Source: a virus
IMG/VR virus record: IMGVR_UViG_3300010373_000005
Location: 14,575-78,574 of that record
Length of the DNA stretch: 64,000 nt
Strand: one strand, 5' to 3'
The notes beneath the pieces were generated by a model. That model was not told the origin of the DNA and ran no database searches. It saw only the letters and a program-made list of their open reading frames with translations. Made by a program: the position numbers and the translations under genes. Of the stretch, positions 1-36,665 are shown piece by piece (the first letter of the stretch is position 1; every line of letters begins with the position of its first letter).

Positions 1-3000
1 AAGAATAGTACGCGTCGTGCGACCTGTCTCGCTCGGCCATCTGCTCCGCGACATTGCCGGTGGCCTGCACCTTGCCTCCGAGCTTGCTGAACACGCTCCT
101 GAGCTTGCCCATCAGCGCGCTCGTCACCCCGTAGACGACCAGCACCGTGCCGGCGCCCGCGGCTCCGACCGCGACGCCTGCCGCAGGCACCGCGAGGGTA
201 GCAGTGAGCCCCAGGGCGATCAGCATCCTCATGGCGGTGCGCGCGACGATGCCAGAGCCGAACTTCACGGCAACTGCCGTGCCGGCACCCTTAGCTATCG
301 CGGTGCCCGCAGAGAACGACGCGGCGCGCCACTCCCCGTGGCTGTCTCGCGGGTGCTGGCTCTCGTTCCAGCCGCCGTGACCTCCGCCGGGGCGCGCGCC
401 CGATCCGGGCGGCCTGCCGGGACCCCGCCTCACCTGGGGCCCCTCGCTGTCGTAGCGAGGTTCCACCGCGTGCTGCGGGACCCCGCGGGCCTCGTGCTCC
501 CTGCGGGCGGTCTCCCGGGCCCTGTCCTGGTGGTAGTCCTGCGCATGGTCGTCCTCGATAACGCGGTTCACCTCGTTCGCGTGCGTGATCCTCGTGATCG
601 GGCCCTTGGGCACCGGCGCGGGCTTGCCCTTGAACGCCCGGGCGAGGCCCTGCACGATCTTGTACGAGGCGTAGCTCGACACCCCGAACACGAGGATGGC
701 GGTGCCGACGCCGGTCGCCACGCCCGCTGCGGCTAGTCCTGCGGTCAGTCCGAGCTGCAGCGCCCTCCGAACGACATGTCCCGCGACGCCCTTGGCGACC
801 GAGATCGCGACCTTACCCCCGGAGATCATGCCGAACTCGCACGCGTCGAAGTACTCCACGTCGTCGAACGACAGGTGTCGCCACTCTCCGTGCTCGTCCC
901 TCGGGTGTCGCTCCTCCTCCCAGCGGATCGCGTGCGCGCCGTGGTGCCTGGCGATGGCGTACACGTGCTGCGGAGGGTGGGCGTGCTGGACGTGAACCTC
1001 GTGCTCGCCCTCGTGGTCCCCCTTGGCGTGCACCATGGCCTTAAAGCCCTTGGACGCCAGGTGCTCGATCGCGGCGAGGGCCGCCACCTTGCCCGCGAAG
1101 TGCAGCACGGCCTTGCCGACGAACTTGGCGGCCGGCATGCTGATGCCGAACGCGTAGGACGCGCCCTTGCCCTTGGGCTTACTCTTCGTAGCCTGACGCG
1201 CAGCCTTACGAGCCTCCTTCGTCTTCTTGGCCCTGTCTGCGGGTGTCTCGGGCCGGAACCCGGGATGTGATTGGATCGCGTCCCACCCCGTGGGAGGCTT
1301 GGTCGCGTTTGCCGCCACGTCGTAGATGTCGTGCAGCGGGTGCTGCGGACCCGTCTCCTGGTTTGTTCCCGGCCCGCTCGGCATGAGCTGCCGGGCGTTG
1401 CGAGCCTCGCGCGCTGCTACTCTTACCTTACGCAATTGGCGCCCGTGGTAGTGCTGCACTATCGACTCGAAGACCTTCGCTAGTACTGCGGAGAGTCCCG
1501 CGGTCATGTGCCCGTACTGGTCGGTGTTCGCGTCGACGATACCCGCGTCCCTCGCGGCCTGCAGCGCCTTCTTGGCGACCACTGCTGAGCCGAAGTCGAT
1601 GGCATACATCACCGCCGCGCCCTTGGCCGACACGTCCTTCTGCTGGTACTTGCTCTGGCTCTTGGGCGAGAACGACCCTGGCATCGGGATGATGGGTCCC
1701 GACGTCTTGTACATGATGGGGACGTGGTCTACGTGCTTCTTGTCCTTAGGATCGACCGCCTCCATGATCGTGTGGTGCACGATCTCGTTGGCCTGCTCGT
1801 GAGTCATGCCCGAGAGGATGAACCCGTTGCCGATCATTGTCGGCGTGATGCCGTGCTGGTTCCTGACTGCAGTGAATGCCGCCTTGGCCCACGTCGGATA
1901 GTTGAACATCACCTTGAAGTCATAGGTGGCATCAGCGCCGTTGAGGGCGAAGGCGTGGGACATCGCCTTCACCGGCGAGCCCCTGTACTTCAGGATGGCG
2001 TAGTTCACGGCCTTCATTGGGCCTCTGACGAGCATGCGTCGCTTCTTGTCCTGTCGCGCCACGGTGCACCCCTGGTTCTCGAGGAACTTCTGCGCGTCCT
2101 CGGCGTCCTCGAGCTGCTCGAAGTAGAGCCTCAGCTTGCGCTCGGATGGTTCCTGCCGCGTCCCGTGAGGCGGATTCCGCGACTGCGAGATCTCGGAGTG
2201 CGGCTGCTGCGGAGGTGCTTGAGGCTGAGTCGCGGTATCCATGCTCATGTCCCTACCTGTTGACCCCAAGAAACGAAGTGCGGCCCTGCGCACTGTTGCC
2301 TCGTCGTTCACCGCATCGCACTGTACTGTCCATATGCCGTTCACCTTGCGATGCCAATCAAGGTCGCAGGGTGGAGACTCTTGCTTCAAGACCCATCTCA
2401 CGAAAGCTTCCGCTGCCACTTGAGAAGGAAAGTGCAGCACCACTTTTCGCTCCACTCCGAACGAGTACCAGAAGTGCGACGAATCCTCCTTCTTGCGCTT
2501 GTCAAGACCTCGAGACACTCTGAACCCGTGACCCGCCGAAGTGTGTGGAGTCTCGTTCGGTCCGATAGAGTACCCCAGAGTTCGCAGGCGATTCATGATC
2601 GCGGACATCATACCTTTATTTCGTTGCTCTTCGGCTACCGCAATACGAATGGGCGTGAGGATCTTAGATCCAGGCTTCTGCCCGAACTCAGAATGGGCCA
2701 TTGCCATTCTGTCTTCGTCATTAGGATCCTCAATATATGCTATGAGCTTACCGGGCTCTTTCTGGATCTTAACATGCTTCTCCCACTCAGCTCCGTTGAG
2801 ATTGGACTTGAAACTCATGCTCCATAGTCTTCGTACGTTCTTGCCGGGCCTGAACCTCACGATCGCCCGCTGGTGACTCAGCGTCTCGACGCCGTTCTGC
2901 GGGTTTGTAGTTATTTTAGGCTGTCGATTGACAGCTTCAAATACTCCAAAATTGCGAAACTCCACGCGCTTGCCGTCGTTCAGGTGGTACACGATCATGT

Positions 3001-3730
3001 TAAGGACGTGATCCAGGGCCATTGCCGCGCGACCCTGCGTGATACCTGTGGCAGATGCCAGAGACTTCAGGACATCGTTCTTGGTGATAGTGTTGGACTT
3101 GAGGGCCATGCTGATAGACTTATCCTGCGCCATGTACGCGTGTCTCGCCGGATCGTCGTCAGGCCCGGGCCGCCCGGGCCTGTGAACTACGCACCGGTTC
3201 AGCTGCCTGAGCGTGGCGACCTTGCACATAACGTGGTTGGCGTGTTGCTCTAGGCGCTTCACTATTCTGTGGCGCCCGTCCAGCACGTCGTCGTGAGGGC
3301 TCAGGATGATCGGCGTGTCCGGGTGCGCCCTGGCGACACGCTCCTCGCTGTAGCCTGTCTTAGGGTCCTTGTTGATCTTGTGCAGGAAGTCGCTCAGCGG
3401 GCGCTCGACCAGGGGGTTCTTCTCCGTCTCAAGCTTGAGACGGGCCACGTCGATGACAGGTACGACGCCCCTGCGTGCCTTCACCTTGTAGTGCGGCGGG
3501 ACACCCACTGTCTCCGGCTCAGCGGATGCCTCGCCCCCGCGGTGCCTGAGCTGCCTTACGCGGTACCTGTCGCCGTATGCCGCCGCGACAGCCCTCCGGG
3601 CCCGGCGTCGCCTGCGAGCCGCTCGCTCAGGGAGCTTCTTTCCCTTGGGTGTGTGCTTCTCCCAGCGGGCCGCCATCTCGGGATGAGTGGCGTGCATCCA
3701 CCGGCGCTGCGCCTGACTGACCAGCGGCAT
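1..3730 (-). CDS. Giant multidomain (polyvalent-type) protein; its C-terminus runs off the left edge (>1,240 aa in the window). Contains a ParB-like N-domain, an HU/IHF-fold domain, a GNAT-like segment, then repeated HPRD-HGEW motif plus hydrophobic-hairpin modules.
   Basis: My own minus-strand translation from ATG 3728-3730 stays open to position 1. It is absent from the ORF track because no stop lies in the window, and no other minus ORF is listed in 1-3555. Motifs: PIILSPHDDVLDGRHRIVKRL (ParB DGxHR); GKRVEFRNFGVFEAVNRQPKITTNPQNGVETLSHQRAIVRFRPGK (HU/IHF beta-arm); IAVAEEQRNKGMMSAIMNRL (GNAT motif-A-like). WEEERHPRDEHGEWR and WNESQHPRDSHGEWR are each followed by Gly/Ala-rich TM-like hairpins. 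The ATG lies 1 nt after the upstream stop. Confidence 0.75.
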   Translation of the reverse strand, partial: MPLVSQAQRRWMHATHPEMAARWEKHTPKGKKLPERAARRRRRARRAVAAAYGDRYRVRQLRHRGGEASAEPETVGVPPHYKVKARRGVVPVIDVARLKLETEKNPLVERPLSDFLHKINKDPKTGYSEERVARAHPDTPIILSPHDDVLDGRHRIVKRLEQHANHVMCKVATLRQLNRCVVHRPGRPGPDDDPARHAYMAQDKSISMALKSNTITKNDVLKSLASATGITQGRAAMALDHVLNMIVYHLNDGKRVEFRNFGVFEAVNRQPKITTNPQNGVETLSHQRAIVRFRPGKNVRRLWSMSFKSNLNGAEWEKHVKIQKEPGKLIAYIEDPNDEDRMAMAHSEFGQKPGSKILTPIRIAVAEEQRNKGMMSAIMNRLRTLGYSIGPNETPHTSAGHGFRVSRGLDKRKKEDSSHFWYSFGVERKVVLHFPSQVAAEAFVRWVLKQESPPCDLDWHRKVNGIWTVQCDAVNDEATVRRAALRFLGSTGRDMSMDTATQPQAPPQQPHSEISQSRNPPHGTRQEPSERKLRLYFEQLEDAEDAQKFLENQGCTVARQDKKRRMLVRGPMKAVNYAILKYRGSPVKAMSHAFALNGADATYDFKVMFNYPTWAKAAFTAVRNQHGITPTMIGNGFILSGMTHEQANEIVHHTIMEAVDPKDKKHVDHVPIMYKTSGPIIPMPGSFSPKSQSKYQQKDVSAKGAAVMYAIDFGSAVVAKKALQAARDAGIVDANTDQYGHMTAGLSAVLAKVFESIVQHYHGRQLRKVRVAAREARNARQLMPSGPGTNQETGPQHPLHDIYDVAANATKPPTGWDAIQSHPGFRPETPADRAKKTKEARKAARQATKSKPKGKGASYAFGISMPAAKFVGKAVLHFAGKVAALAAIEHLASKGFKAMVHAKGDHEGEHEVHVQHAHPPQHVYAIARHHGAHAIRWEEERHPRDEHGEWRHLSFDDVEYFDACEFGMISGGKVAISVAKGVAGHVVRRALQLGLTAGLAAAGVATGVGTAILVFGVSSYASYKIVQGLARAFKGKPAPVPKGPITRITHANEVNRVIEDDHAQDYHQDRARETARREHEARGVPQHAVEPRYDSEGPQVRRGPGRPPGSGARPGGGHGGWNESQHPRDSHGEWRAASFSAGTAIAKGAGTAVAVKFGSGIVARTAMRMLIALGLTATLAVPAAGVAVGAAGAGTVLVVYGVTSALMGKLRSVFSKLGGKVQATGNVAEQMAERDRSHDAYYS

Positions 3731-3731
3731 T

Positions 3732-4148
3732 CTACGCCCCCTGCTGGGCCGCGCAGGCCGCGAAGCACTCCTGGGCCGCGTCGGCGCTGCCGTCTCGCAC
3801 GGCGTCGAGCGAGTGCAGGGCGAGCGCCTGGGCCTGGGCCCGGCCGTCCTTGCCGAGGTTGCGCACGTGCCTGTCACGTCGGAGCTGCTTCTTGGACTCG
3901 ACCACCGCGGGTCCCAGCACGCTGTCGTCGTAGCTGCTGGTGTCCTCGTGGAAGGCAGCCTGCACGTGCTCCTGGGTCGTCTCGGCGGTAGCCTGAGCGG
4001 GAGCGCACTTCGAGAAGATCGACTGGAGCGCGGCAATCACCGCGCTCACCATGCCGAGGATCGTGAGTGGGTCGATGCCCGCGAGCTGGGGGTCAGCTGA
4101 CGCGTTGCTCGCGGCTGCCTGACAGATCTGAGTATCCTGCACGTTCAT
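3732..4148 (-). CDS. hypothetical protein (138 aa) with one hydrophobic helix
   Basis: This is the C-terminal part of track ORF 3732..4373. I moved the start to ATG 4146-4148 (MNVQDTQ...), which forms an ATGA overlap with the stop of 4145..4342. Hydrophobic stretch: LTILGMVSAVIAALQSIF. Confidence 0.5.
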   Translation of the reverse strand: MNVQDTQICQAAASNASADPQLAGIDPLTILGMVSAVIAALQSIFSKCAPAQATAETTQEHVQAAFHEDTSSYDDSVLGPAVVESKKQLRRDRHVRNLGKDGRAQAQALALHSLDAVRDGSADAAQECFAACAAQQGA

Positions 4149-4342
4149 ATGCTCCCCTTTCTCACGTAGGCTAGCACGAACTCTTCTGGCACCGGCATCT
4201 CGACGCTGCTGTCCTTCGGTATTACCTGCAGCTCGCTCGGCGCGCCGTCCTCGAATCTGTCGGTGATCCTCAGCGTCACGGCCTCGAAGAGCTCTCCGTT
4301 GGGCATCGTGACTTCCAGCGGCAGGTGCTTCTGTCTGGCCAT
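4145..4342 (-). CDS. hypothetical protein (65 aa)
   Basis: Track ORF on the coding strand of the operon, with an ATGA overlap to the downstream gene. No motif recognised. Confidence 0.45.
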   Translation of the reverse strand: MARQKHLPLEVTMPNGELFEAVTLRITDRFEDGAPSELQVIPKDSSVEMPVPEEFVLAYVRKGSI

Positions 4343-4372
4343 GTCTCACTCCCTCGAGAACGGTGGCCCTCA

Positions 4373-4798
4373 CTACATCTTGAACAGGCCCGACACTGCC
4401 GGTGTTCCCGACTGCTCGTCCCTGATCGGTGCGGACAGCGAGACGTCGACTCCGGTGTCGACCTCGCCTCGGTCGTCCGGGTACTCGATCCGCTCGGGGC
4501 CCAGCGGCGGGAGCGGCATGCGCCGCTTGCCCTTAGGATCCAGTCCGGCTGGCTCGGCGACCATCACGTGGACTACAGCCACGTCGTCGCCGCACTCGAA
4601 GTTCACCGAGACCTGCCCCGCGTTCAGCGCGGTGACCCAGCCGGAGCGACCCCTCGATCCTCCCTCGACGGTGACGGCGACGACGCCGGGCTCGTCGAGA
4701 GCCGCCAGCTTCGGGTCGACGGGCGACCTGAGCTCGAAGTGCACCTTCTCGCCGGGATACAGCCTCACTCCGCACTCGTGTAGCATGTCGTTCTCCAA
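4373..4798 (-). CDS. Ig-like (Big_2-type) domain protein (141 aa)
   Basis: Track ORF. GVVAVTVEGGSRGRSGWVTALNAGQVSVNFECGD resembles the strand pattern of bacterial Ig-like group 2 domains. Confidence 0.5.
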   Translation of the reverse strand: MENDMLHECGVRLYPGEKVHFELRSPVDPKLAALDEPGVVAVTVEGGSRGRSGWVTALNAGQVSVNFECGDDVAVVHVMVAEPAGLDPKGKRRMPLPPLGPERIEYPDDRGEVDTGVDVSLSAPIRDEQSGTPAVSGLFKM

Positions 4799-13236: not shown

Positions 13237-14178
13237 CTATTCCGGCGCGCACTCGTTCTGGAACGTCTTCCTGTACTGCCGCCAGCCGCGGAAGTTGCCG
13301 GACTGCTCCACAGACCCGTCGCTCCGGCGGCTGCTGGCAGGCATCGCCTGCGCCACGTGCTCCGTGGGAGCCCAGTGCCCGAAGCCTGAGCCCCTCCTGA
13401 GCTTGTCGGCCAGTTCCAAGTCCTTCCTCCAGTCACGCTTGCCATCGTGCGTGAGGTAGCTGACGCGGGCCACGCGGGCGGCGCTGATGGCGTTGAGCAT
13501 CTCCGTCATGCCCTGTCCTGTGGCCAAGCCACTCCATGGCGCCCCAGCTCTGAATTTATTCACCAGCTCGTCGCAAGGGTCTTGCAGCGCGACTCGCAAT
13601 TCGCGAGAAAGTTCCTCCTTGTCGTTCCCCGTCACGTACGGCCTGTGCCACTCGCCCTCCTTCCTGGGCGTCGGTACGCTCGCCTCCATCGCATCTCGCC
13701 ACATGTAGGCTATCTTCTGTATGTGAGGCTCCGCGTCCGGGTGGCACCTCAGCCTGAAGAAGTTCTGCCAGTCTGTAGCAGTCACGATCACGGTTATCCA
13801 CATCCACGGCTCGACGAGACGATTACATAGGCTCTTATGTAATCCACTCTTAGCAAGCGCCCTAGCTTGTGACACCGCCATGTCCCGCGCCGCCAGCCAC
13901 TCGCACTGGCAGATCACCCTGTCGGGAGCTTCCAGCTCCGCGCCCTGCTGCATCCCCCTCGCCTCTGAGCCCCACCTGATCGGGATCACCGGGTCGTCCA
14001 GTACCGCCGCGAGCATCTTCGCCAGCGGGATCGCCCGGCTCGACGCTGAGCTCCTGCTCAGCGCCCTGTGCGTCAGCAGCTCGCTGTGGACGAACCTGGG
14101 ATAGGTGAGGACTCCCGTAGTCAATCTGACTCCTGTGGGCCCTATGCTGTCCAGCAATACCTCAGCCTTGTACGCCAT
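13237..14178 (-). CDS. thyX: FAD-dependent thymidylate synthase ThyX (313 aa)
   Basis: ThyX signature: LTHRALSRSSASSRAIP (RHR-x7-S-x-R type). Start at ATG 14176-14178 (GGAGGAG SD, TGATG overlap with the upstream stop). It looks longer than the ThyX proteins I recall (not measured against any reference). Confidence 0.8.
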   Translation of the reverse strand: MAYKAEVLLDSIGPTGVRLTTGVLTYPRFVHSELLTHRALSRSSASSRAIPLAKMLAAVLDDPVIPIRWGSEARGMQQGAELEAPDRVICQCEWLAARDMAVSQARALAKSGLHKSLCNRLVEPWMWITVIVTATDWQNFFRLRCHPDAEPHIQKIAYMWRDAMEASVPTPRKEGEWHRPYVTGNDKEELSRELRVALQDPCDELVNKFRAGAPWSGLATGQGMTEMLNAISAARVARVSYLTHDGKRDWRKDLELADKLRRGSGFGHWAPTEHVAQAMPASSRRSDGSVEQSGNFRGWRQYRKTFQNECAPE

Positions 14179-14426
14179 CACTCGCTCCTCCTGTAGTAGA
14201 GAAAAGTATGCCTCGACACCTCGTAGAACCACCCTCCCGCGTCCCTGAACCAGCCCTCGAACGGCGGCTGGTCCTCTCCCCCGCCGAACGCGTAGTGCAC
14301 CTCGACGACTTCGCCGGACTCCAGCATCACGTCGTAGTGCACCACGCGGGTGTCCCTGCCCTCAGGCATGGCCTCCGCGAACCACCAGTGGTCGGGACCG
14401 CACGGAGATGTGTCGCTCCAGGGCAT
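14178..14426 (-). CDS. hypothetical protein (82 aa)
   Basis: Track ORF. Trp-rich; no motif recognised. Confidence 0.45.
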   Translation of the reverse strand: MPWSDTSPCGPDHWWFAEAMPEGRDTRVVHYDVMLESGEVVEVHYAFGGGEDQPPFEGWFRDAGGWFYEVSRHTFLYYRRSE

Positions 14427-14450
14427 GGGGTCAAGCTCTCTTGAACGATA

Positions 14451-14735
14451 CTAAACTCGCTTGAACCACAGCTGGACGTGCCCGTTGCCGCACTTGATCT
14501 CGACGTGCAGCCGCGACTCCCTGCACCAGTCGAGCAGCAGCTCGAGCCGCTTCGCGCCGAGCTCCCCGTACCACGGCAGGCAGAGATTATCTCCAGAATC
14601 CCACCGCACGGCGGCTCTCAGCCACGACTGAGGTGTCAGCTCCTCGCAGTCCGTGAGCCAGCTCTCGGTCATGCTGGCCACCTGCCGTCCCAGACTGCTG
14701 GGCTCGGCTGGTCCCTTCCACAGTGTCAAGTTCAT
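14451..14735 (-). CDS. hypothetical protein (94 aa)
   Basis: Track ORF 14451..14858 trimmed to ATG 14733-14735, which forms an ATGA overlap with the upstream stop. Confidence 0.45.
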   Translation of the reverse strand: MNLTLWKGPAEPSSLGRQVASMTESWLTDCEELTPQSWLRAAVRWDSGDNLCLPWYGELGAKRLELLLDWCRESRLHVEIKCGNGHVQLWFKRV

Positions 14736-15145
14736 GATCTCACTCCTCGTTCTAGCGTGGTAGACCACGCGCTGAGTACCTTCAGTAGGTTGGCCAGGTC
14801 GGTGAGCTGACACGCCCACTGCCACTGGTCCCTGTCGTCCACATACGACACGCTGCATGCAGACGTGCCGCGCATGGGTGAGTCTTCAGCCTCCCACGGC
14901 ACGCGCCGGACCAGCACCGCGTGTCTGGGCCACCTCCTGTGGAGCTGCGATAGCCTATGCTCCTGCAGTTCCTCCACGGCCGTGTCCGCGTCCTTGCACT
15001 CTATCAGGCCGGACCACAGCGGATGCACAACCAGCCTGTCGGGCCAGCCCGGCTCGGTGTAGACACTGGCCTGCATGACCTGGACCATGGCGCCCTGTGA
15101 GCGCAGCACTCTCGTGAGCTCCGCGGTGAACTTGTTCTCAGCCAT
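14732..15145 (-). CDS. VRR-NUC-type (PD-(D/E)xK) nuclease (137 aa)
   Basis: GWPDRLVVHPLWSGLIECKDADTAVEELQEHRLSQL matches the G-x-PD ... (I/V)E-x-K ... Q pattern of VRR-NUC domains. Confidence 0.6.
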   Translation of the reverse strand: MAENKFTAELTRVLRSQGAMVQVMQASVYTEPGWPDRLVVHPLWSGLIECKDADTAVEELQEHRLSQLHRRWPRHAVLVRRVPWEAEDSPMRGTSACSVSYVDDRDQWQWACQLTDLANLLKVLSAWSTTLERGVRS

Positions 15146-15539
15146 GTGATCTCCTCTCAGGAGTCATTCCCAGCTTCCTCTCCCAGTCTAGGTCGAACGT
15201 CCGGTAGTCGCACGTGAGTTCGTCGCCCGGGACGAGGTCCCTGACGGCGACGTCGCGGTGAGCATGATCACTTATCAGTGAACATGCTCCCCCTTCCGCG
15301 TGGTTCATGTACCGGGCGTCGTCCATGCACAGCACGTAGTACTTGCCGGTGCGGTACGCGTAGCGCAGCACCATGTCCTGCCACAGCGGGTTCATCGCCG
15401 CCAGCTCGTCCTCGGTTATCATCTTGTCGAGCTTGTACGTTATCCCCCACACGACTGAGCCCTTCGCGACCGGCTCGAGCAGGAAGCACCCCAGGCCGTG
15501 TATGGGCGAGGGTCGCACCTCGGTCTTGTACATTAACAA
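15138..15539 (-). CDS. SET-domain protein methyltransferase (133 aa)
   Basis: SPIHGLGCFLLEPVAKGSVV (N-SET GxG), ARYMNHAEGGAC (RF/YxNHS-like) and RDLVPGDELTCDY (ELxxDY) appear in the canonical order and spacing. Confidence 0.7.
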   Translation of the reverse strand: MLMYKTEVRPSPIHGLGCFLLEPVAKGSVVWGITYKLDKMITEDELAAMNPLWQDMVLRYAYRTGKYYVLCMDDARYMNHAEGGACSLISDHAHRDVAVRDLVPGDELTCDYRTFDLDWERKLGMTPERRSHG

Positions 15540-15542
15540 GGT

Positions 15543-15776
15543 TCACTCCTTCTTGTCTGACAGGATTCGCTCGTAGCACTCGTGACAGATCGGCTCTAGG
15601 CGCTCCGTCACGCCGTGAACGACGATCTGGTAGTCCCTCGTCTCCCCGAACTTCAGCTGCCTGCCGCACCGGTGGCACCTGTCGGTCACTGGCGGACCCT
15701 TGCCGAACGCTAGCCAGACGAACAGCGCCAGGGACATCACCCCGAAGAGCGCGAAGGCGTATACTACGTATATCAC
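15543..15776 (-). CDS. small membrane-anchored zinc-ribbon protein (77 aa)
   Basis: This is the C-terminal part of track ORF 15543..16271, whose N-terminal part overlaps the GT gene. GTG 15774-15776 is preceded by AGGAGG with a 5-nt spacer. TM segment IYVVYAFALFGVMSLALFVWLAF, then CHRC...CHEC. Confidence 0.5.
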   Translation of the reverse strand: MIYVVYAFALFGVMSLALFVWLAFGKGPPVTDRCHRCGRQLKFGETRDYQIVVHGVTERLEPICHECYERILSDKKE

Positions 15777-15796
15777 GCGAACCTCCTGTATGAAAT

Positions 15797-16936
15797 TCAG
15801 ACGAAGCGTCTCACTACGTACTGCCACGTGTTCATGCTCGCCGCGGTGTCGGCCAGGAAGCAGCCCTCGCCGGCGGTGAAGACCTTCCTGTCGCCCGAGA
15901 TCACGTGCAGCCAGTACGCGAGCGAGTCGTAGGCCTCGAGCATCGTCTTGTGCCTGCCTCCCAGGTCGACGCTCGTCAGGAGCGGCATCAGCTTCTCGAT
16001 CAGCCTGATTCCCGGCAGCTCTGCCTGCAGGTCCGACAGCAGGTCGTGCTGCGTGCGCATGTGCTCCACGACCGGCGTGCCGAATCGCGCCGTCTTGCCG
16101 ACAGCCTTCGCGCACTTCAGCGTGAAGTAACCGGCAAGGATGTCGCCGAACCGGTTCACCGAATCGCTCCCCGACTCTCCGCTGACACCTTTCCCTTCCA
16201 TCCGCACGTACCAGTACGTGAGCGCAGCCTCGCGCGTCATGGCAGTGTTCTGGCTGTTGATCGGCGCCCACGTCTCAGTCGCCAGTCGCACTCCGCCGTG
16301 CGCATACTGGCCGTTCGACACCGGCCTTAGTGCCAGCCTAGTGACGGCGTCCACGTCGGGGTCTCCGGTCCACAGACCGGCGTTGATAACCACTGGCTGG
16401 TCGACGGCTTCTCGCAGCACGACGTGCCTGTAGGCTTCACGCGCCGCGTATGGCACGCCGCGGGCGAAGCATAGCCCGCACCCGTGGAGCTGGTGGACCG
16501 GGTCGAACCACGGACCCTCGGTGCCTCCGTCGAGGAGCACGGAGTCTCGACTCGACGAGACTCCCTGCAGGTGTCCCGCGAGCCACCCCGGCGTGCAGTA
16601 GTTGTCGTCGTCTATGTGTATCACGATGTCGCAGCCGTCGGCGAGAGCCATGAGCGTGCCGACATTCCTCCGATTGTCGCTGTCAAACGGGATGAAACCA
16701 TCCGGCACGCCGGCGTTTATCAGGAACTCCTCCTGCTCCTGCAGGGACGGGGACCTCAGCTGGTCCCTCAGCCCGCCCTGCCCGCGCAGGTACGAGCACG
16801 CGTTCACGGTCTCGGGCGGCGTCTTCCTGTCGCAGATGAGGTACATTGTCGCGTCGGGATGAGTTCTCAACTCATCCACGTAGCACGGCAGGAAGTCGGG
16901 CCTGTTGATCGTGGTGACTACTATCGCGGTCTTCAT
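15797..16936 (-). CDS. glycosyltransferase-like protein resembling the reversibly-glycosylated-polypeptide (GT75/RGP) family (379 aa)
   Basis: AIVVTTINRPDFL, DIVIHIDDDNYC (DxD), INAGLWTGDPDVDAVTRL and NRFGDILAGYFTLKCAKAVGKTARFGTPVVEH follow the order of RGP-family blocks as I remember them. Not verified by search. Confidence 0.5.
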   Translation of the reverse strand: MKTAIVVTTINRPDFLPCYVDELRTHPDATMYLICDRKTPPETVNACSYLRGQGGLRDQLRSPSLQEQEEFLINAGVPDGFIPFDSDNRRNVGTLMALADGCDIVIHIDDDNYCTPGWLAGHLQGVSSSRDSVLLDGGTEGPWFDPVHQLHGCGLCFARGVPYAAREAYRHVVLREAVDQPVVINAGLWTGDPDVDAVTRLALRPVSNGQYAHGGVRLATETWAPINSQNTAMTREAALTYWYVRMEGKGVSGESGSDSVNRFGDILAGYFTLKCAKAVGKTARFGTPVVEHMRTQHDLLSDLQAELPGIRLIEKLMPLLTSVDLGGRHKTMLEAYDSLAYWLHVISGDRKVFTAGEGCFLADTAASMNTWQYVVRRFV

Positions 16937-17235
16937 CAGAAGTCTCCTCCAGGGTTCCTGTGGATCGCGGCGAGGCCGTCGGCCACGTAGTCAGGTCTAT
17001 CTTTCTTCGGCCTCTCCAGCACTCTGGTCTGGAGCGCCCGCCTGACACACTCGGCGCACACGTCCAGGTGCTCGCCCTCGTCCGACTGGACGACTATGAC
17101 GACGTCTTCCCTCTGGTACTCGTCGCGGGTCCTGCGCGGGATCACGACACCGAACCCGTTGAACTCGCGGTTCGACTGGAGCTTCTCGCGCTCCACGACC
17201 CTGTCGCACACGTCGCAGTGCTGCTTGATGGCCAT
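16936..17235 (-). CDS. small zinc-ribbon protein (99 aa)
   Basis: Track ORF. CDVC ... CAEC pairs. TGATG overlap with the downstream GT gene start. Confidence 0.5.
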   Translation of the reverse strand: MAIKQHCDVCDRVVEREKLQSNREFNGFGVVIPRRTRDEYQREDVVIVVQSDEGEHLDVCAECVRRALQTRVLERPKKDRPDYVADGLAAIHRNPGGDF

Positions 17236-17251
17236 TTCTTCGTTCCTCCGA

Positions 17252-17262
17252 TACGAGTGATG
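17252..17262 (-). promoter_or_regulatory. conserved leader motif CATCACTCGTA
   Basis: Plus-strand tacgagtgatg, 17 nt upstream of ATG 17235. Same core as 20256, 22389, 27235 and 58094. Confidence 0.5.
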
Positions 17263-17272
17263 ATACTTCCAG

Positions 17273-17380
17273 CACGGACGCCAGGAATCGAACCTGGTCT
17301 TCGGGTCTTAGCCGCGTGCGCTCTCGCAGACTTCTGACGTCATCGCCTGCGCAGTCTTGTCCAGCCACACCGCGTCCGTG
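17273..17380 (-). ncRNA. tRNA-like element (108 nt). It has a canonical T-arm and an 8-9 bp acceptor-type stem, and a possible Leu(CAG)-like loop on an over-long anticodon arm. It is not a canonical tRNA.
   Basis: Minus strand: CCAGG-TTCGATT-CCTGG T-arm, immediately followed by CGTCCGTG, which pairs with CACGGACG at the 5' end. The interior can form a D-like TGT/ACA stem, a long interrupted hairpin capped by the loop G-T-CAG-A-A, and a short extra arm. It is about 20-30 nt too long for any standard tRNA. It starts about 10 nt downstream of the -10 of promoter 17390-17418. Confidence 0.35.
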
Positions 17381-17389
17381 TACGCTCTT

Positions 17390-17418
17390 ATTATACCAGA
17401 CCTATCGCCTCTTGTCCA
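17390..17418 (-). promoter_or_regulatory. sigma70-like promoter: TGGACA-N17-TATAAT
   Basis: Minus strand: -35 TGGACA (17413-17418), 17-nt spacer, TGG-TATAAT (17390-17395). It overlaps the 3' end of the GT4 gene. Confidence 0.55.
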
Positions 17419-18772
17419 TATCCAGTGCCTGCAATAGCGCCTCGCACGTCAGCCGCGGGTGGTTGTGCTTCACGAGCATCTCGCGGTTGTGCTGCACGAG
17501 CTCCTGTGTTCGCATGTCATAGGCCCTGGTGACGCACGCATGGAGCAGGCGACATCGGGCCTCTGCCATTGGATCGCTCCCGGGGTCGAGGCCGTTCTTC
17601 CCGTCCTCCCACTGCACGCCGCCCTGGTGACCGTCGAGGGGAGGTTCAAATATCTCAATTTGAAATTGATCACAGTACCACGGTGTGAACGCCCTCGCCG
17701 TTATGGGTGCGCAGCCCGCGTCCATGGCCTCGAGCGTCGAGTACTCGAACAGGCCACCCGAGTAGTCGCTGGTCGTCACGGCCACGTGTACGTCGACGCC
17801 ACTGAGGACCTCCAGCGGGTCCTCGTAGAGTCCCAGGAACGCCGCGCTCGCGTCCCAGCCGTGGAACTCCCACGGCAGCGCCCTGATCACGTCCATCGGG
17901 TCGTCGTCGGGACCGCCGCGGGTCGCGGTCCAGTGCCACAGGGCCTTGACGTGAGGGTCCTCGTCGGGTGCGGGTCGGCCCCACTGCACCTCTGCCTTCC
18001 TCACCAGCATCTCGTACATCAGGTACGTCTCGCTGGGCGCCCTGCTCTGCGCGGAGCCTCCCGCTATGACTACGTCCCAGCCGGGAAGCAGTCCCTGCGT
18101 GATCAGCCACAGCAGGTAGTGCTGGTGCTTCTGCGTGGTGACCCGGCCGATCATTCCGACCGACGGCCGAGCCCGCATGGAGAACTCTCCAAGCGGGTTC
18201 CGGACGGCGTACGGCAGCCCCACGTGCACGTGGTGGCATGCCCGCAGTCGCTCGCTGTTGCAAGTCATCACGCCCGGCGTGGCGTTGTTCACTACCAGCC
18301 CGCTGAAGCTCTTCGTGCTAAGGAGCTCGCCCAGGTAGGGCGAGCCGCGCTCGCGGGACCAGCCCTTCGGGATCTCGCGCTCCTCGAAGAAATATCGGCC
18401 CCCGAGCGTGCACGTCCACGGCGTCCGGGTCGCCATCAGCACCTCGACGTACCGCGGGAAGTCGACCAGCCCCTTGTCCGCCTCGCGGTCATGGCTGTTG
18501 CACTTCGGCTCGGGGAGCACGATTAGATCGAACTGATCTAGTACTTCTCCCCCTTCCTCGTACGAGAACGTGACGTCAGGAGCGACAAGGCTCGACATCC
18601 CGTTGCCCTTGTCCCGGACGATGCGGCCCCACTTGACCTTAGGTTTACCACTCTTAGTAAATCCTACTATATAGCACTCGTGGCCCATGGCCCTGAAGCC
18701 GTCGCGCACCTGGTTCACCCACGTGGAGATGCCGCACACGCGCGGCTCGGGGTCGTATATGGCGATTCGCAT
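17402..18772 (-). CDS. GT-B fold glycosyltransferase, GT4-like (456 aa)
   Basis: N-terminal MRIAIYDPEPRVCGISTW. C-terminal GGLFEYSTLEAMDAGCAPI matches the E-x7-E sugar-donor motif of GT4/GT1 enzymes. Confidence 0.75.
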   Translation of the reverse strand: MRIAIYDPEPRVCGISTWVNQVRDGFRAMGHECYIVGFTKSGKPKVKWGRIVRDKGNGMSSLVAPDVTFSYEEGGEVLDQFDLIVLPEPKCNSHDREADKGLVDFPRYVEVLMATRTPWTCTLGGRYFFEEREIPKGWSRERGSPYLGELLSTKSFSGLVVNNATPGVMTCNSERLRACHHVHVGLPYAVRNPLGEFSMRARPSVGMIGRVTTQKHQHYLLWLITQGLLPGWDVVIAGGSAQSRAPSETYLMYEMLVRKAEVQWGRPAPDEDPHVKALWHWTATRGGPDDDPMDVIRALPWEFHGWDASAAFLGLYEDPLEVLSGVDVHVAVTTSDYSGGLFEYSTLEAMDAGCAPITARAFTPWYCDQFQIEIFEPPLDGHQGGVQWEDGKNGLDPGSDPMAEARCRLLHACVTRAYDMRTQELVQHNREMLVKHNHPRLTCEALLQALDMDKRR

Positions 18773-20318: not shown

Positions 20319-22373
20319 TCAGCCTTCCTGGCTGTCAGTTCCCTTGGAGTCTCCGCCCAGCAGCTTGCCGAGGATGCTTCTCAGGTCGCCGATGTCGTTG
20401 GCCATGCGGCGCTTGTCGATGACTCGCTCCCTGACCTCCTGGTCGATGGTCCCCATGATGATGAGGTCGGTGCATCTCACCGGGCGCCTGGTGCCTCGCC
20501 GGTGGGCCCTGTCCTCCGCCTGGGACCTCAGCACTGACGACCAGCCCTGGCTGAAGAAGATCACGCGGGTCACGTCTGTGGGGATCGACTCGTCGCCGGG
20601 CGGGTGGCCGATGAGGTTAAGGCCGGTGCCGCCCGCGGCTGGGTTGCCGAGGAAGACGCGACACTGAGGGTCATTATTAAATGACCACTCAGCGGCGCGT
20701 CTGTCATCGTCGCCCGTGTTCCCCGTGAACACCACGTGCCCGATGGATTCTTGCGACAATCTCTCGGAGATCGTCGCGATGTCCTCCATGAAGCATGCCC
20801 ACACGATCATCTTCTCGTCCTCGCCGAGCGGCTCGATCAGGTCGTCGTCGTCCTCGAACCCCTTGATCTGCTGGACGAGCGCCTCCACCTTCGGGTTGGG
20901 CGTGATCCGCTGTATCGTCTTGGGCACCACCATCTCGCCGGTGTCGAGGTCCACGATCGGGTCGAAGCTGACGAAGCCTGACGTGATCTGCGCTAGGCGC
21001 AGGAGCTTCACGAGGATATTGTTGGCGTTAACTGTCTTGGTCTGGTCCGCCATGTCGTCCTCGATCTCGATCAGTAGCTTGTTCTTCATCATCTGGTAGA
21101 ACTGCCGCTGCTCGGTTGTCATCTCCACGTCGACGAAGTCGTAGGTCTTCTTCGGCAGGTCGGGCAACGCCTCTGCCTTCGTGACGATGAACGACATGCG
21201 TGCTAACCTGTCTCTCAGGAACGGCAAGTTCTGGACGTCGACCATCCGCCGCCCACCGTCCGCCGAGATCTGGAACACGCCGTAGAAGTTCTTGAAAGCC
21301 TCGAAGTTGCTGAACCCCGAGCCGCCCTCGCGCATGAACTCGAACAGTGAGTACAGGTCGACCGGCGTGTTACACACTGGCGTGCCGGTCAGCACGCGTC
21401 TCCTCTCGGAGACGTCGCGCAGCTTGAAGGCGAACCTGGCCCGCTTCGTCTTGGGCCACTTGATGAAGTGTCCCTCGTCCAGACCTGCCAGGTGCCACTT
21501 GATGATGGACAGGTACTGCCACATGTTGCTGAGTAATTCATATGACGAGATGAACGTGGTGTAGCGCTGGCCGGGCCGCGCCTGGATGCCCTCCAGCAAT
21601 AATCTGACGCGCTCCCCCTCCCATCCCTCGAGGACGATCACCCTGCCGTCGACCTGCGAGAACCGCTGGATCTCCGACGCCCAGTTGTGCCTCACGTTCT
21701 TCGGGGCGATCAGCAGTGACTTGAACAGCTGCTGCTTCTTGGGCAGGTGGGAGCGGTCCTTCGAGGCCTCTCGGTCGATCTCCTCGACGACGCACAAGGT
21801 CTTCCCGGTGCCTGGCACCATGAAGTACCCGTAGCCGTCTGCACGCCTGGAGTTCATGGTGGCGACGACCTGGTGGAGCATCATGGGATTCTCGCCCATA
21901 GTGAGCCTCGGGACGTCGCAGTACTCGAAGCCGTCGCCGAGAGCTTCCAACTCGTCCTGGAGGGAGAGGTCACCTTCGGTGATCCTCTTCCTCAGGTCGT
22001 TCCGTCTCTCGCAGTACTCGTGGTACTTCGCCGCGCGCTCCATGTCCTTACGCTGCTGCTCCATGGTCTTCGACCAGTAGTCGAGGGCGATCCTCGCCTC
22101 GTCACTCGCCTCGAGTTGACTCGCGGGCCACAGTCCCGTGATCACCATCACGACGGCGTCAGTCACCGGTACGTGGTAGTGATTACCGAGCGAGCCGATC
22201 TCCTTCTTCTGCGGCAGCCGCTTGACGATCGCCTTCGCAGCTCCCGACACGTTCCACGCGGGGTCTCGGTAACTGAGTAAGAGATCGAAGTCCTTACCGT
22301 CGTCCGTCAGTTTGAGGCTCATCCTGTCTGTCGCCGGTATCCTCGGGGCGTTCTCCAGTACCTTGTCGATCAT
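20319..22373 (-). CDS. SNF2-family DNA/RNA helicase (684 aa)
   Basis: Motif I FMVPGTGKTL, motif II LDEGHFIK, and C-terminal helicase block VFLGNPAAGGTGLNL ... SQAEDRAHRRG. Confidence 0.9.
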   Translation of the reverse strand: MIDKVLENAPRIPATDRMSLKLTDDGKDFDLLLSYRDPAWNVSGAAKAIVKRLPQKKEIGSLGNHYHVPVTDAVVMVITGLWPASQLEASDEARIALDYWSKTMEQQRKDMERAAKYHEYCERRNDLRKRITEGDLSLQDELEALGDGFEYCDVPRLTMGENPMMLHQVVATMNSRRADGYGYFMVPGTGKTLCVVEEIDREASKDRSHLPKKQQLFKSLLIAPKNVRHNWASEIQRFSQVDGRVIVLEGWEGERVRLLLEGIQARPGQRYTTFISSYELLSNMWQYLSIIKWHLAGLDEGHFIKWPKTKRARFAFKLRDVSERRRVLTGTPVCNTPVDLYSLFEFMREGGSGFSNFEAFKNFYGVFQISADGGRRMVDVQNLPFLRDRLARMSFIVTKAEALPDLPKKTYDFVDVEMTTEQRQFYQMMKNKLLIEIEDDMADQTKTVNANNILVKLLRLAQITSGFVSFDPIVDLDTGEMVVPKTIQRITPNPKVEALVQQIKGFEDDDDLIEPLGEDEKMIVWACFMEDIATISERLSQESIGHVVFTGNTGDDDRRAAEWSFNNDPQCRVFLGNPAAGGTGLNLIGHPPGDESIPTDVTRVIFFSQGWSSVLRSQAEDRAHRRGTRRPVRCTDLIIMGTIDQEVRERVIDKRRMANDIGDLRSILGKLLGGDSKGTDSQEG

Positions 22374-34775: not shown

Positions 34776-36665
34776 TCAAACAAACTTTCGCTTAGCGTCA
34801 TCAGATTTAGCAATAGCCCAGTTGGGACCCCAGCCGATGGCCGCCTTGATAGGCACCCTGAACGGCCGCGACGGGCTCTCGAGCACCTTCACTATCTTGC
34901 GCAGGAAGCGCTCGTCCTGGCAGAGCTCGAGCGGGGCGTAGCCCGCCACCTCGTCGTGCACCTGCGCGAACATCTCGAACTCCGGCACCTCCTCGGCGAG
35001 GGCGACCATCCGCTCCCGGCAGAGCTCTCCCGCCGTGGACTGGCACAGGCTCGGCAGGGCCGTGTGTGCTGCCTGCTCCGGCAGGTGCCTGAGCGCGCCG
35101 TAGTGGTTGCGCACCGAGCCCCTGGCCCTGCACGCGGCGGCCGCGCGCTCCCTGACCGAGCGCAGCTCCGGCAGGTCCGCGTGATACTTGTCGAATACAG
35201 CGGTGGCGCGGTACGCGCAGGCACGCTCGACCGCGGCACGTCGGGCCTCAGGTGGGATTGTACTGTCATTGACAATTTCATCCCAGATGGTCCCGACGAA
35301 CTTCTTGTTGATGGCCAGGGCGGCGATCGTCTTCTTCTTTCCCTGCCCGAACCCGATGGCGAAGTTCAGCGTCTTGGCCGCGTCGCGGCTGCACGGTATC
35401 GAGTCGGCGATCATCTGGTGGAAGTCGGTCCACGGGTCGTCCTGGTACATCTGGATGCACCGCCGGTTCTCCAGGTAGTGCACCAGCACCCTGTACTCAA
35501 CCTGCGAATAATCCGCGCAGATGATCCCGTAGCCCTCGGGAGCCTCGACCAGCGACTTGGCCGCGGTGTCGAACTGCTGCGGGTTGGGCTCGCTCGCGCT
35601 CAGCCGGCCCGTGCGCACCCTGCCGTTGAACGTCGGGTGCAGCCTGCTGTCGTCGGAGATGTGGCCCTTCTTCTCCCACGCCCCGACGAACAGCGACTGG
35701 AACGTGGACAGCTTCCTGTAGTCCAGGATGCCCTGCACGATCTCCGTGGGCGCGTCTGGGTGGTCCAGGTAGAGCGCGAGCGCGTCAGCGTCGAACGACG
35801 GCCCTGGCTTCGACATCGTGCCGTCCGCCCTCTCGCTCGGCTCGGTCCAGGCCAGCACCGGCAGGCCGAACTGGTTGCAGAGCACGTCGTAGCAGTCCTT
35901 GTTCGAGGTGGCCGAGAAGACCCGCCCGATGAGCTTCTCTAGCTCGTAGTCCTTCTCGAGCATCTTCTTGATCGTGTCAATGTGCGCTCGCTTGACCTTC
36001 TTCCGGTCGATGAGCATCCCGCGGCGCTCCATGTCGAAGAGCACGCGTTCGAACTTCTTCGACGTCTCCCAGACCTCGTCGGAGACCGCCGGGAAGTGCT
36101 GCTCCTGCCAGACGTCTAGCTTGATGTTCGTCCTCACGTCGACGCACGCGTACTCTGCCAGGATGTCCAGCGGCACGTCGCCGTAGTCCTTGGAGTCCTC
36201 GAGGTACGGGAGCATCGCGCGCCCGTACTTGTCGATGTTCTCCTCGAGCAGCTGCTCGGAGAGGACGTCGAGCCCGTAGCCTCCCTTGTAGATCCTGTCA
36301 GAGTCGATGAGCTTCGCCCGCGTGAGCGTGCAGCGCATCTCCCTCTGGAAGACCTCATTCAGGTCGTTGGCCGACACGTGCGCGTCGTACTTGACGTGAT
36401 GGTTGGTCCAGGCGGCGGATGCCCTGAGCACGTCGCCCCACCAGCCTGACATGAGCCGCTTCGGCACGAACCAGATAGGACTGTCGCGCCCGAACGCCAC
36501 CGCGACGCCTATGGCTGAGCAGTGGTGCCAGGGATTGGTCGACTTGAGCTTCGGGTCTCCAGACGAGGTCTCAAAATCACAGTATAAGTTTGGTATTATA
36601 CTTGGAACTGATGGAAGATCTCCATGAGTTTCACAAAGCATCCCACCAGATTCAAACTTTATCAC
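34776..36665 (-). CDS. polA: family-A DNA polymerase with 3'-5' exonuclease domain (629 aa)
   Basis: ExoI LYCDFETS; Pol motif A ICADYSQVEYRVL; motif B RDAAKTLNFAIGFG; motif C AQVHDEV. The C-terminus IGWGPNWAIAK is typical of a full-length PolA. Confidence 0.92.
   Translation of the reverse strand: MIKFESGGMLCETHGDLPSVPSIIPNLYCDFETSSGDPKLKSTNPWHHCSAIGVAVAFGRDSPIWFVPKRLMSGWWGDVLRASAAWTNHHVKYDAHVSANDLNEVFQREMRCTLTRAKLIDSDRIYKGGYGLDVLSEQLLEENIDKYGRAMLPYLEDSKDYGDVPLDILAEYACVDVRTNIKLDVWQEQHFPAVSDEVWETSKKFERVLFDMERRGMLIDRKKVKRAHIDTIKKMLEKDYELEKLIGRVFSATSNKDCYDVLCNQFGLPVLAWTEPSERADGTMSKPGPSFDADALALYLDHPDAPTEIVQGILDYRKLSTFQSLFVGAWEKKGHISDDSRLHPTFNGRVRTGRLSASEPNPQQFDTAAKSLVEAPEGYGIICADYSQVEYRVLVHYLENRRCIQMYQDDPWTDFHQMIADSIPCSRDAAKTLNFAIGFGQGKKKTIAALAINKKFVGTIWDEIVNDSTIPPEARRAAVERACAYRATAVFDKYHADLPELRSVRERAAAACRARGSVRNHYGALRHLPEQAAHTALPSLCQSTAGELCRERMVALAEEVPEFEMFAQVHDEVAGYAPLELCQDERFLRKIVKVLESPSRPFRVPIKAAIGWGPNWAIAKSDDAKRKFV

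Follow-up and report, generated by a model that had tools for sequence, protein, structure and literature searches.

A giant modular protein of a tailed phage joins an HU domain, a predicted ParB/sulfiredoxin fold and hydrophobic hairpins

The stretch of viral DNA analysed here, 64,000 nucleotides (nt) at positions 14,575 to 78,574 of the IMG/VR record IMGVR_UViG_3300010373_000005 (hereafter the window, numbered from its own first letter), opens with a minus-strand gene for a protein of 1,393 amino acids (aa). The locus raises the question of what a tailed phage does with a single polypeptide in which an HU domain, a ParB-like module and long hydrophobic segments stand side by side. A preliminary description, made from the letters of the window, had taken the product for a large polyvalent protein. 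Such proteins carry 2–15 domains of disparate activity in one polypeptide and are argued to be packaged into the head and injected (Iyer, Burroughs, Anand, de Souza and Aravind 2017, PMC5512222). We find that the giant protein belongs to a rare, undescribed branch of polyvalent phage proteins, and that the family of short peptides punctuating it at module junctions is a new element. What stood of the earlier proposal is that a tailed phage encodes a single giant protein of many modules, tied to the polyvalent class by a linker motif; the signature domains of that class are absent. Four features come in addition to those described before: a conserved N-terminal peptide, the recurrent junction peptide, a third hydrophobic hairpin and terminase-proximal synteny in the relatives.

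The giant reading frame and its modules

On the minus strand no stop codon interrupts the frame between the ATG at 3730 and base 1, which gives 1,243 codons, in agreement with the more than 1,240 reported at first. The absence of this open reading frame (ORF) from the original ORF track had been ascribed to the want of a stop in the window; our ORF lister omitted it as well, because no stop lies inside. The full-length frame, the recovery of which had been proposed as a check, is supplied uninterrupted by protein P0001 of a large protein collection (JGI contig). As called there, P0001 begins at an internal Met and has 1,382 aa; with 11 N-terminal residues added, the true length is 1,393 aa (152 kDa, pI 10.1). 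Codons 1–1243 thus occupy 1..3730 of the window, minus strand, and the last 150 lie beyond its left edge. The G+C content at third codon positions (GC3) is 0.8–1.0 along the frame, as in the polymerase and helicase genes of the same phage, with the exception of aa ~210–505, and on this signature the ORF is coding throughout.

A Shine-Dalgarno-like AGGGGG, read from the sequence, is located at 3737..3742 (minus strand), 6 nt upstream of the ATG, which itself comes 1 nt after the TAG stop of the preceding gene (3732–3734). Since the homologous N-terminal peptides all start at the same MP-x-x-S-x-AQR, ATG 3730 is the right start and the database call at Met12, 11 codons downstream (window 3695–3730), is wrong. 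A longer ORF from 4036, up to which the frame is open, was rejected: its G+C at second codon positions (0.91) exceeds GC3, a wrong-frame signature, and over that upstream extension the neighbouring gene's own frame has a GC3 of 0.88–0.94. It should be added that the 213-aa ORF directly upstream (3732–4373, minus strand), for which no family match was obtained, has a non-coding GC3 of 0.43 over its first ~58 codons; its real start is probably the internal Met of MNVQDTQIC... near 4148.

Approximately 13 modules were mapped in the protein, of which HU and the ParB/sulfiredoxin (Srx) fold are identifiable; the reading frame, the HU domain and the motifs described below are solid. In a Pfam search with the entire protein at E ≤ 1, PF00216 and PF18291 were the only families matched, and the precomputed Pfam list of P0001 is identical. 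The N-terminal peptide (N-peptide; aa 1–35, 3626..3730, minus strand, MPLVSQAQRRWMHATHPEMAARWEKHTPKGKKLPE), with 17 invariant alignment columns, is followed by an Arg-rich tract (aa 36–52, 3575..3625, minus strand, RAARRRRRARRAVAAAY) of net charge +12 and pI 12, which ends in a possible junction, AAAY↓GD (here and below the arrow marks the junction).

The HU/IHF module spans aa 209–305 (2816..3106, minus strand) between the junctions SISM↓ALKS and LWSM↓SFKS. PF00216 matched aa 216–300 (2831–3085) with 63.4 bits against a cutoff of 22.4, over profile positions 2–86 of 90, and PF18291 (HU-HIG) with 35.2 bits; HU/IHF structures in PDB were matched by sequence with E down to 3e-8. NCBIfam IHF/HU models also matched, with scores far below the equivalog cutoffs for cellular HU/IHF. 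The module reads RNFGVFEAV...TTNPQNG, i.e. a GFGxF-type core and an NP-x-x-G beta-arm tip with the conserved proline, the arm having fewer basic residues than that of cellular HU. The beta-arm segment noticed in the preliminary description was therewith confirmed, and by homology the module may be expected to dimerise and bend DNA.

For the module preceding it (aa 75–190, 3161..3508, minus strand), the same description had pointed to a ParB DGxHR motif. The motif, LDGRHR, is indeed present at aa 150–155 (DGRHR at 3266–3280) within the DGxHR/GxxR box PIILSPHDDVLDGRHR, to which VLDGAHR and VILDGNH correspond in the relatives, and the active-site-loop Arg after the central strand is in place; the ParB assignment itself found a predicted fold on its side and every sequence profile against it. 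No profile support was obtained in Pfam, NCBIfam or PDB searches, and a word-indexed search with the segment alone gave no match. A small three-sequence profile reached SbnI, which we take to have the ParB/Srx fold, at E = 0.14 only; other weak leads were phrog_17560 (E = 5.6e-4) and, by tblastn at E ≈ 4, 110-aa jumbo-phage proteins annotated as ParB. An AlphaFold (AF2) model built on a 4-sequence alignment had a predicted local distance difference test score (pLDDT) of 74 and a predicted template modelling score (pTM) of 0.65. In Foldseek searches of PDB with this model, the top ~49 matches all belonged to the ParB/Srx superfamily (probability ≤ 0.99, E = 0.03–0.3, template modelling score ~0.45), among them ParB, Noc, Srx, pNOB8 ParB-N, PadC, SbnI, serine kinase (SerK) and KorB. 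Furthermore, 12 viral models in BFVD, many of which carry the name ParB/Sulfiredoxin, matched at E ≤ 1e-3, the template modelling score reaching 0.78. The model thus points to a ParB/sulfiredoxin fold for aa 75–190, at fold level only.

Binding of DNA by the giant protein is credible in view of HU, the predicted ParB/Srx fold, the Arg-rich tract and the overall pI of 10.1. Nearly every module is net positive, which together with that pI fits a DNA-associated internal protein.

The compositionally deviant block (aa ~210–505, window ~2216..3103, minus strand; GC3 0.5–0.7 against 0.8–1.0 in the flanks) comprises HU, a GNAT-like module and the first of five small modules, R1–R5. The lower-GC stretch first placed at roughly 2.4–3.0 kb is therefore real and wider than thought. 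Its most plausible origin is an exchange of modules with a relative of lower GC; an assembly chimera was rejected as the cause, because the collinear homology with the relative P0003 (see below) runs across the 3' border of the block. The GNAT assignment of the preliminary description fared worse. A motif-A-like strand-loop-helix string is present at aa 361–387 (2570–2650) within the module at aa 306–424 (2459..2815, minus strand), reading R-N-K-G-M-M where motif A has Q/R-x-x-G-x-G/A, so that the last position misfits. The Acetyltransf_7 score of 15.2 bits (E = 0.028) falls short of the cutoff of 27, covers the motif A region only and is near chance. A single-sequence AF2 model (pLDDT ~57) has a compatible strand-loop-helix, and the heterogeneous Foldseek matches of this low-confidence model included no GNAT. 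The assignment was consequently not confirmed, having support from neither profile nor fold search. In P0003 a different module takes this position.

R1 (aa 425–495, 2246..2458, minus strand), a small alpha/beta module between YSF↓G and RDM↓S, is homologous to P0003 aa ~211–283 and is predicted to fold as beta-alpha-beta-beta-alpha (pLDDT 63–82). A P/Q-rich linker and R2 follow (aa 496–594, 1949..2245, minus strand; R2 homologous to aa 17–74 of the relative P0004 and to P0003), then R3, R4 and a basic linker (aa 595–859, 1154..1948, minus strand; homologous to P0004 aa 222–395 and P0003 aa ~480–620). The His-rich R5 (aa 860–935, 926..1153, minus strand) is R1-like at its start (KAVLHFAGKVAALAAI; z = 5–8.6 against shuffles), and with the adjoining first HPRD stretch (aa 860–966) it contains 15 His and has a pI of 6.3. 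The idea of five homologous R repeats was only partly supported, R1 resembling R5 while R2–R4 are not significantly alike.

The C-terminal part contains two copies of the linker W-x-E-x-x-HPRD-x-x-G-x-F/W (hereafter the HPRD linker), RWEEERHPRDEHGEWR at aa 936–951 (878..925, minus strand) and GWNESQHPRDSHGEWR at aa 1120–1135 (326..373, minus strand), the latter running into the junction RAASF↓SAG (P1 codon 314–316). As had been noticed at first, each is followed by hydrophobic sequence, an uncharged Gly/Ala-rich stretch of 34–40 residues: hairpin 1 at aa 990–1023 (662..763, minus strand; 34 uncharged residues) and hairpin 2 at aa 1169–1206 (113..226, minus strand; 38 uncharged residues). The two HPRD/hairpin modules are paralogues (z = 15 against shuffles), and with a DNA identity of 58% their duplication is of some age. 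A third hairpin (aa 1316–1360), beyond the window, comes after a basic motif with two Cys. Three segments resembling transmembrane helices occur in the C-terminal half of the giant protein, P0003 and P0004 alike. Three long uncharged hairpins, a trait kept in both relatives, make membrane interaction credible as far as sequences can tell.

Relatives, shared peptides and module junctions

Neither tblastn nor megablast with the whole giant protein against 50,697 phage records gave a match, and a word-indexed search returned only the protein itself and P0002 (731 aa). An exhaustive phmmer search with aa 302–1060 against 1.84 billion representatives identified just two relatives, both from other samples: P0003 (1,513 aa, E = 5e-6) on contig L015 and P0004 (1,030 aa, E = 9e-5) on L016. 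P0003 is collinear with the giant protein over aa 214–731 (E = 2e-24), and P0004 aligns over R2, R3–R4 and the two-Cys motif (63% identity). An HU domain (73 bits) forms the start of P0003, and the ORF upstream of it closes with a ParB-like "...VILDGNH..." module; the ORF before P0004 likewise bears an HU domain. The gene directly after P0004 is a TerL homologue, the alignment with a verified TerL spanning both Walker motifs, A and B, and a small helix-turn-helix protein downstream of P0003 could be TerS. A search of viral and genome contigs with the three-protein alignment gave nothing useful, the lone genome match covering the HU region only. The family is real, rare, fast-evolving and modular; in its conserved order a ParB-like module comes first, then HU, then the small alpha/beta modules and the hydrophobic segments, with terminase next to them.

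Two side observations concern the relatives. In both, the equivalent of the giant protein consists of two adjacent ORFs split at module junctions (L016, 2–1105 and 1116–4208; L015, 1444–2361 and 2366–6907); these splits may be genuine, or they may be frameshifts or sites of read-through. The two-Cys motif, YPW-x-x-CV-x-D-x-x-x-RYGS-x-x-AARRVCGKIRA (full-length aa 1277–1307, P0001 1266–1296; P0004 aa 902–939), is the piece best conserved between the giant protein and P0004 and could be a metal-binding or disulfide module; as a DNA pattern it had 0 matches in IMG/VR.

The N-peptide is a late-gene module followed by a basic tail, and elsewhere it occurs as a free-standing late gene of 39–72 aa or as an internal module. 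Its gene (39–65 aa) lies immediately after portal in L007 (phrog_156), with the same arrangement in L002, and immediately before the large terminase in L001 (phrog_2). It is internal in P0002, directly after TerL and Portal_Mu, and in an ORF of at least 511 aa on L004. In Streptomyces phage FlowerPower it heads a 72-aa Lys/Ala-rich protein between a "peptidase" ORF and holin. Host GC is 39–53% for the N-peptide proteins and 59–72% for the giant relatives. No Pfam family was matched by the N-peptide, the whole-protein scan having given HU families only; it may resemble DUF3008. As an observation in its own right, the tiny late genes form a family, MP-x-K-S-x-AQRRWMHATHPEMA-x-RWE-x-ETPKGK-x-LP with a Lys-rich tail, beside portal, terminase or holin (L001 9235–9432; L002 8725–8844; L006/L007; L008–L011; L013; L137 5001–5219).

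The HPRD linker is far more widespread. A degenerate DNA pattern for W-x-E-x-x-HPRD-x-x-G-x-[F/W] was found in more than 119 IMG/VR viral contigs (L017–L135), with up to four copies per ORF among the matches listed. Normally a Gly-rich linker comes next, a strongly hydrophobic segment following in 1–2 of ~135 instances among the matches listed; the combination of HPRD and hairpin is thus unusual. A Pfam scan of 70 carrier ORFs sampled from viral contigs revealed portal domains in 13 (Phage_portal_3 in 10, Portal_Mu in 3) and Phage_Mu_F in 4, alongside ADPrib_exo_Tox (5), Zeta_toxin (4), LPD3 (4, with LPD13 also present), NUDIX (3) and, in two each, InPase, ART-PolyVal, the prohead protease Peptidase_S78, PBECR1, PBECR3 and RelA_SpoT. 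Since the carriers hold the polyvalent repertoire, the giant ORF is tied to the polyvalent class; the use of the linker as a sign of membership is our own operational criterion and not one taken from PMC5512222. Neither that paper nor the MuF-toxin paper PMC5576092 mentions the motif in its text, and a literature search for it returned nothing relevant. To judge from the domains it accompanies, it is a widespread phage linker marking portal-, MuF- and polyvalent-type proteins.

The junction peptide, [AS]-[AS]-[M/Y/F]↓[S/A/G]-[F/M/L], punctuates the giant protein, P0003 and P0004. Six sites are observed in the giant protein against 1.6 expected (4 of 500 shuffles reach this number), 11 in P0003 against 1.6 (0 of 500), and five of a four-residue variant in P0004 against 0.7 (0 of 500); the density in the giant protein is ~8 times that in the other proteins of the window. 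Unrelated types of module, namely HU, the R modules and the hairpins, are flanked by these sites. At ~22% identity, six junctions still fall on exactly matching positions in the alignments (M305/M98, F424/M210, M495/M283, F594/F480/M227, Y1312/M937). Within the window, on the minus strand, the P1 codon of M208 (SISM↓ALKS) is at 3107..3109 and aligns with the initiator Met of P0003, i.e. with a gene boundary in L015; that of M305 (LWSM↓SFKS) at 2816..2818 aligns with HEM↓SF of P0003, and VGM↓SG follows HU in L016. M495 (GRDM↓SMD, 2246..2248) aligns with GKDM↓GFS of P0003, and F594 (SHAF↓ALNG, 1949..1951) with FAF↓AM of P0003 and VAM↓GP of P0004. The upstream ORF of L016 ends one residue past a junction, RFSF↓G and then the stop codon. 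As M208 corresponds to the P0003 initiator and this ORF ends at a junction, module junctions and gene boundaries are interchangeable. The HPRD motif, moreover, runs straight into a junction, in the giant protein as GEWRAASF↓SAG and in P0004 as GRFASM↓GIGG, and P0002 and the L004 ORF have a variant, [basic]-x-Y-A.

Internal translation starts at the junction Met residues were rejected, because they have no upstream Shine-Dalgarno sequence and because Y or F often stands in place of M. By analogy with processed proteins, the simplest functional reading is that the junction is most likely cut by a protease that takes a large hydrophobic residue at P1 and a small one at P1'.

Possible functions of the giant protein

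What we infer for the function of the protein, namely packaging, ejection, cleavage and membrane insertion, may be set out as follows. The gene would be expressed late, at the boundary with the packaging (terminase) genes, and the product would be loaded into the capsid, with the N-peptide as a possible docking or targeting unit, and leave it with the DNA. The Arg-rich tract, the ParB/Srx module and HU would bind and bend phage DNA, and on ejection the C-terminal part, with its two HPRD motifs and three hairpins, would become inserted in the membrane of the host. The ~13 modules being joined by a peptide that probably marks proteolytic sites, the whole would be a polyprotein from which small DNA-binding and membrane proteins are released. 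Our tentative preference, somewhat short of an even chance, is thus for a late, head-loaded, DNA-escorting and membrane-inserting protein of polyvalent type, probably processed at its junctions. The preliminary description had suggested a DNA-bound, membrane-interacting ejection or anti-defence protein; its DNA-binding and membrane parts are credible, and for the anti-defence part no anti-defence or enzymatic domain was confirmed. A bolder version, which we consider improbable, is an undescribed family of tailed-phage polyproteins, in which a precursor of more than 1,000 residues encoded upstream of terminase would be loaded into the head by the N-peptide and cut at the junctions into a dozen small proteins, among them a histone-like HU, a ParB/Srx protein, orphan alpha/beta domains and membrane hairpins, which would exit together with the genome, coat it and anchor it at the host membrane; a polyprotein strategy is otherwise rare in double-stranded DNA (dsDNA) phages.

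Several points weigh against head loading and processing. Virion association we infer from context: P0004 stands before TerL and P0002 after TerL and portal, terminase adjacency being seen in the relatives and not within the window for the giant gene, where neither terminase nor portal is found. MuF, portal, zincin metallopeptidase (MPTase), LPD and ArdC-N domains are all absent from the giant protein, and the window's MuF is a separate gene (63061–63969, minus strand). A tape measure protein is present (55085–57475, minus strand), the protein to which formation of the membrane channel is usually attributed in siphophages. The FlowerPower N-peptide gene, at a late operon end, adjoins holin and not portal. 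As to cleavage, a protease was not recognised within the 64-kb window. A prohead protease that might serve as the cutting enzyme was likewise not found in the window, whose head proteins have no junction motif; the major head protein has no N-terminal delta-domain-like extension either, from which we read that the head may be built without such a protease. Finally, a low-confidence model places the junction WYSF in a beta-strand of R1, and the motif could be structural.

An intracellular role outside the virion is unlikely in our estimate and is the alternative that survives best. The protein would then be a membrane-anchored DNA-organising or packaging-initiation factor, HU and the ParB-like module bending and marking phage DNA for the adjacent terminase, in the way that IHF assists lambda terminase at cos, and the hairpins tethering the complex to the membrane, in the way that phi29 p16.7 anchors phage DNA. 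Such a factor is consistent with the location of the relatives immediately upstream of TerL (L016) or a possible TerS (L015), with the N-peptide gene directly before TerL in L001, and with HU and a predicted ParB/Srx fold in a protein with no confirmed enzymatic effector. However, the company of the HPRD linker is overwhelmingly that of portal, MuF and injected-effector proteins, P0002 with its N-peptide sits inside the head-morphogenesis block after portal, and thirteen modules with three hairpins far exceed what a packaging cofactor needs.

Rather unlikely, too, is a polyprotein or fused operon of independent late proteins (HU, ParB-like, holin-like) that a protease of host or phage would set free to act separately in the infected cell, none of them being delivered with the DNA. 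The enrichment and positional conservation of the junctions, and the agreement of module boundaries with gene boundaries in L015 and L016, speak for it. By analogy, the format of the hairpin modules, 80–105 aa ending in basic C-terminal tails, recalls holins, and the FlowerPower N-peptide gene adjoins holin. Yet that likeness is one of format only, PHROGs having given the giant protein no holin match; neither a protease in the window nor an adjacent lysis enzyme was identified, and the HPRD company points to virion proteins.

An artefact, whether ordinary small genes fused by faulty assembly or sequencing or a chimeric contig in which the low-GC block is foreign, for which one might cite the metagenomic source, the deviant block at aa ~210–505 and the two-ORF state in L015 and L016, is largely refuted and highly improbable, given 1,393 uninterrupted codons (including ~300 at ~50–55% GC, where chance stops are expected), a coding GC3 signature throughout, and P0003 and P0004 (1,513 and 1,030 aa), each likewise one ORF, with modules that follow in the same order across the low-GC borders. 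The probability left over belongs to explanations beyond the preferred reading and these three rivals.

The phage and its place among known systems

The window derives from a tailed phage of 62% GC in which every recognisable gene is on the minus strand, the giant gene being the last in the direction of transcription. The protein is phage-encoded, as MuF, the major head protein, the tape measure protein, PolA and a primase-helicase lie in the same window. Apart from the MuF and tape measure genes located above, the recognised genes encode the major head protein (60075–61166; phrog_29, E = 4e-56), the primase-helicase (41155–44004), a C5 methylase (38999–40276), PolA (34776–36665), an SNF2 helicase (20319–22373), GT1-like (17402–18772) and RGP-like (15797–16936) glycosyltransferases and a 331-aa ThyX-like protein with a partial Thy1 match (13237–14232), all on the minus strand. 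With no terminase or portal in the window, both must sit in the remaining 14.5 kb of the contig. ARAGORN detected neither tRNA nor tmRNA genes in the 64-kb window.

Further observations on the neighbourhood may be added. The ThyX-like/glycosyltransferase cluster (13237–18772), with the SNF2 helicase nearby upstream, suggests a possible pathway of DNA hypermodification or glycosylation. A radical-SAM/SPASM protein (49032–49991, minus strand) and a family-2 glycosyltransferase (50008–50994, minus strand) are found amid the tail-region genes, an unusual cargo for a structural block, and could modify virion proteins or DNA. The 949-aa replication protein at 41155–44004 had weak matches only, to a CHC2 zinc ribbon of the DnaG type and to the P-loop of MCM, and may be a divergent primase-helicase fusion.

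If the preferred reading holds, there are phages that bring nucleoid-architectural proteins of their own (HU, ParB-type) into the host with the genome, together with membrane-inserting modules, all made as one precursor in which modules can be swapped; such swapping is seen in the low-GC3 block and in the gain and loss of modules from one relative to another. The polyvalent concept would then extend from enzymatic anti-defence effectors to DNA architecture and membrane functions, and a polyprotein-like expression strategy would be added to those of tailed phages. The N-peptide, HPRD linker and junction peptide could serve as sequence handles for mining virion-borne cargo in metagenomes and for engineering phage cargo delivery. 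On a conservative reading, there remains a widespread HPRD linker that marks portal-, MuF- and polyvalent-type proteins.

Among known systems, T7 gp14/15/16, P22 gp7/16/20 and phi29 p16.7 associate with DNA and insert into membranes at genome entry or replication. Unlike these, the giant protein has no such PHROGs homology, and its phage, having a tape measure protein, has a long tail. Cleavage motifs of the T4/phiKZ type have an acidic P1, in contrast to the M, Y or F found here, and neither a prohead protease nor homology was found here. The proposed junction processing would nevertheless follow the same logic as that of SPN3US gp53/gp54, phiKZ-like inner-body and T4 internal proteins, which are packaged in abundance, cut by prohead protease at a short recurring motif and ejected with the DNA (PMC10052503).

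With the HU/IHF family and HU-HIG fusions the giant protein shares a bona fide HU domain, core and beta-arm tip included; it differs from them in that this domain is a single module in the interior of a 1,393-aa phage protein. The phage P1 Dar proteins (DdrB with its DdrB-like ParB domain; DarA/Hdf), proposed or known to be processed, packaged in the head and injected (PMC5512222), are similar in combining a ParB-superfamily module, predicted in our case, with a large phage protein; they differ in that no Pfam ParB-type match and no MPTase autoprocessing domain were obtained here. The small viral ParB/Srx module of the giant protein (~115 aa) appears closest to gp11 of the jumbo-phage Erwinia phage Huxley and to Q2Z106 of phage EL. 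As compared with MuF- and portal-fused effectors (PMC5576092; SPP1 gp7 / Mu gp30), the giant protein is without a MuF or portal domain, but its HPRD linker occurs in portal or MuF ORFs (17 of the 70 carriers), and P0002, which shares the N-peptide, holds the gene slot right after portal.

The polyvalent proteins are the nearest class. The giant protein departs from them in that the signature domains MuF, portal, zincin MPTase, ArdC-N, LPDs, PBECR and ART-PolyVal were not detected, in that no enzymatic effector was confirmed, and in its own junction peptide and N-terminal targeting-like peptide. Neither HU nor transmembrane hairpins are among the domains in the main text of PMC5512222, its dsDNA-binding list included, and because HU is missing there, an HU domain embedded in a polyvalent-type protein is unusual, as the preliminary description had held. 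The giant protein resembles the class in being a very large phage protein of many unrelated modules, in joining a predicted ParB-superfamily module to a dsDNA-binding domain, in the shared HPRD linker with its two copies, and in having relatives placed in a virion and packaging gene context.

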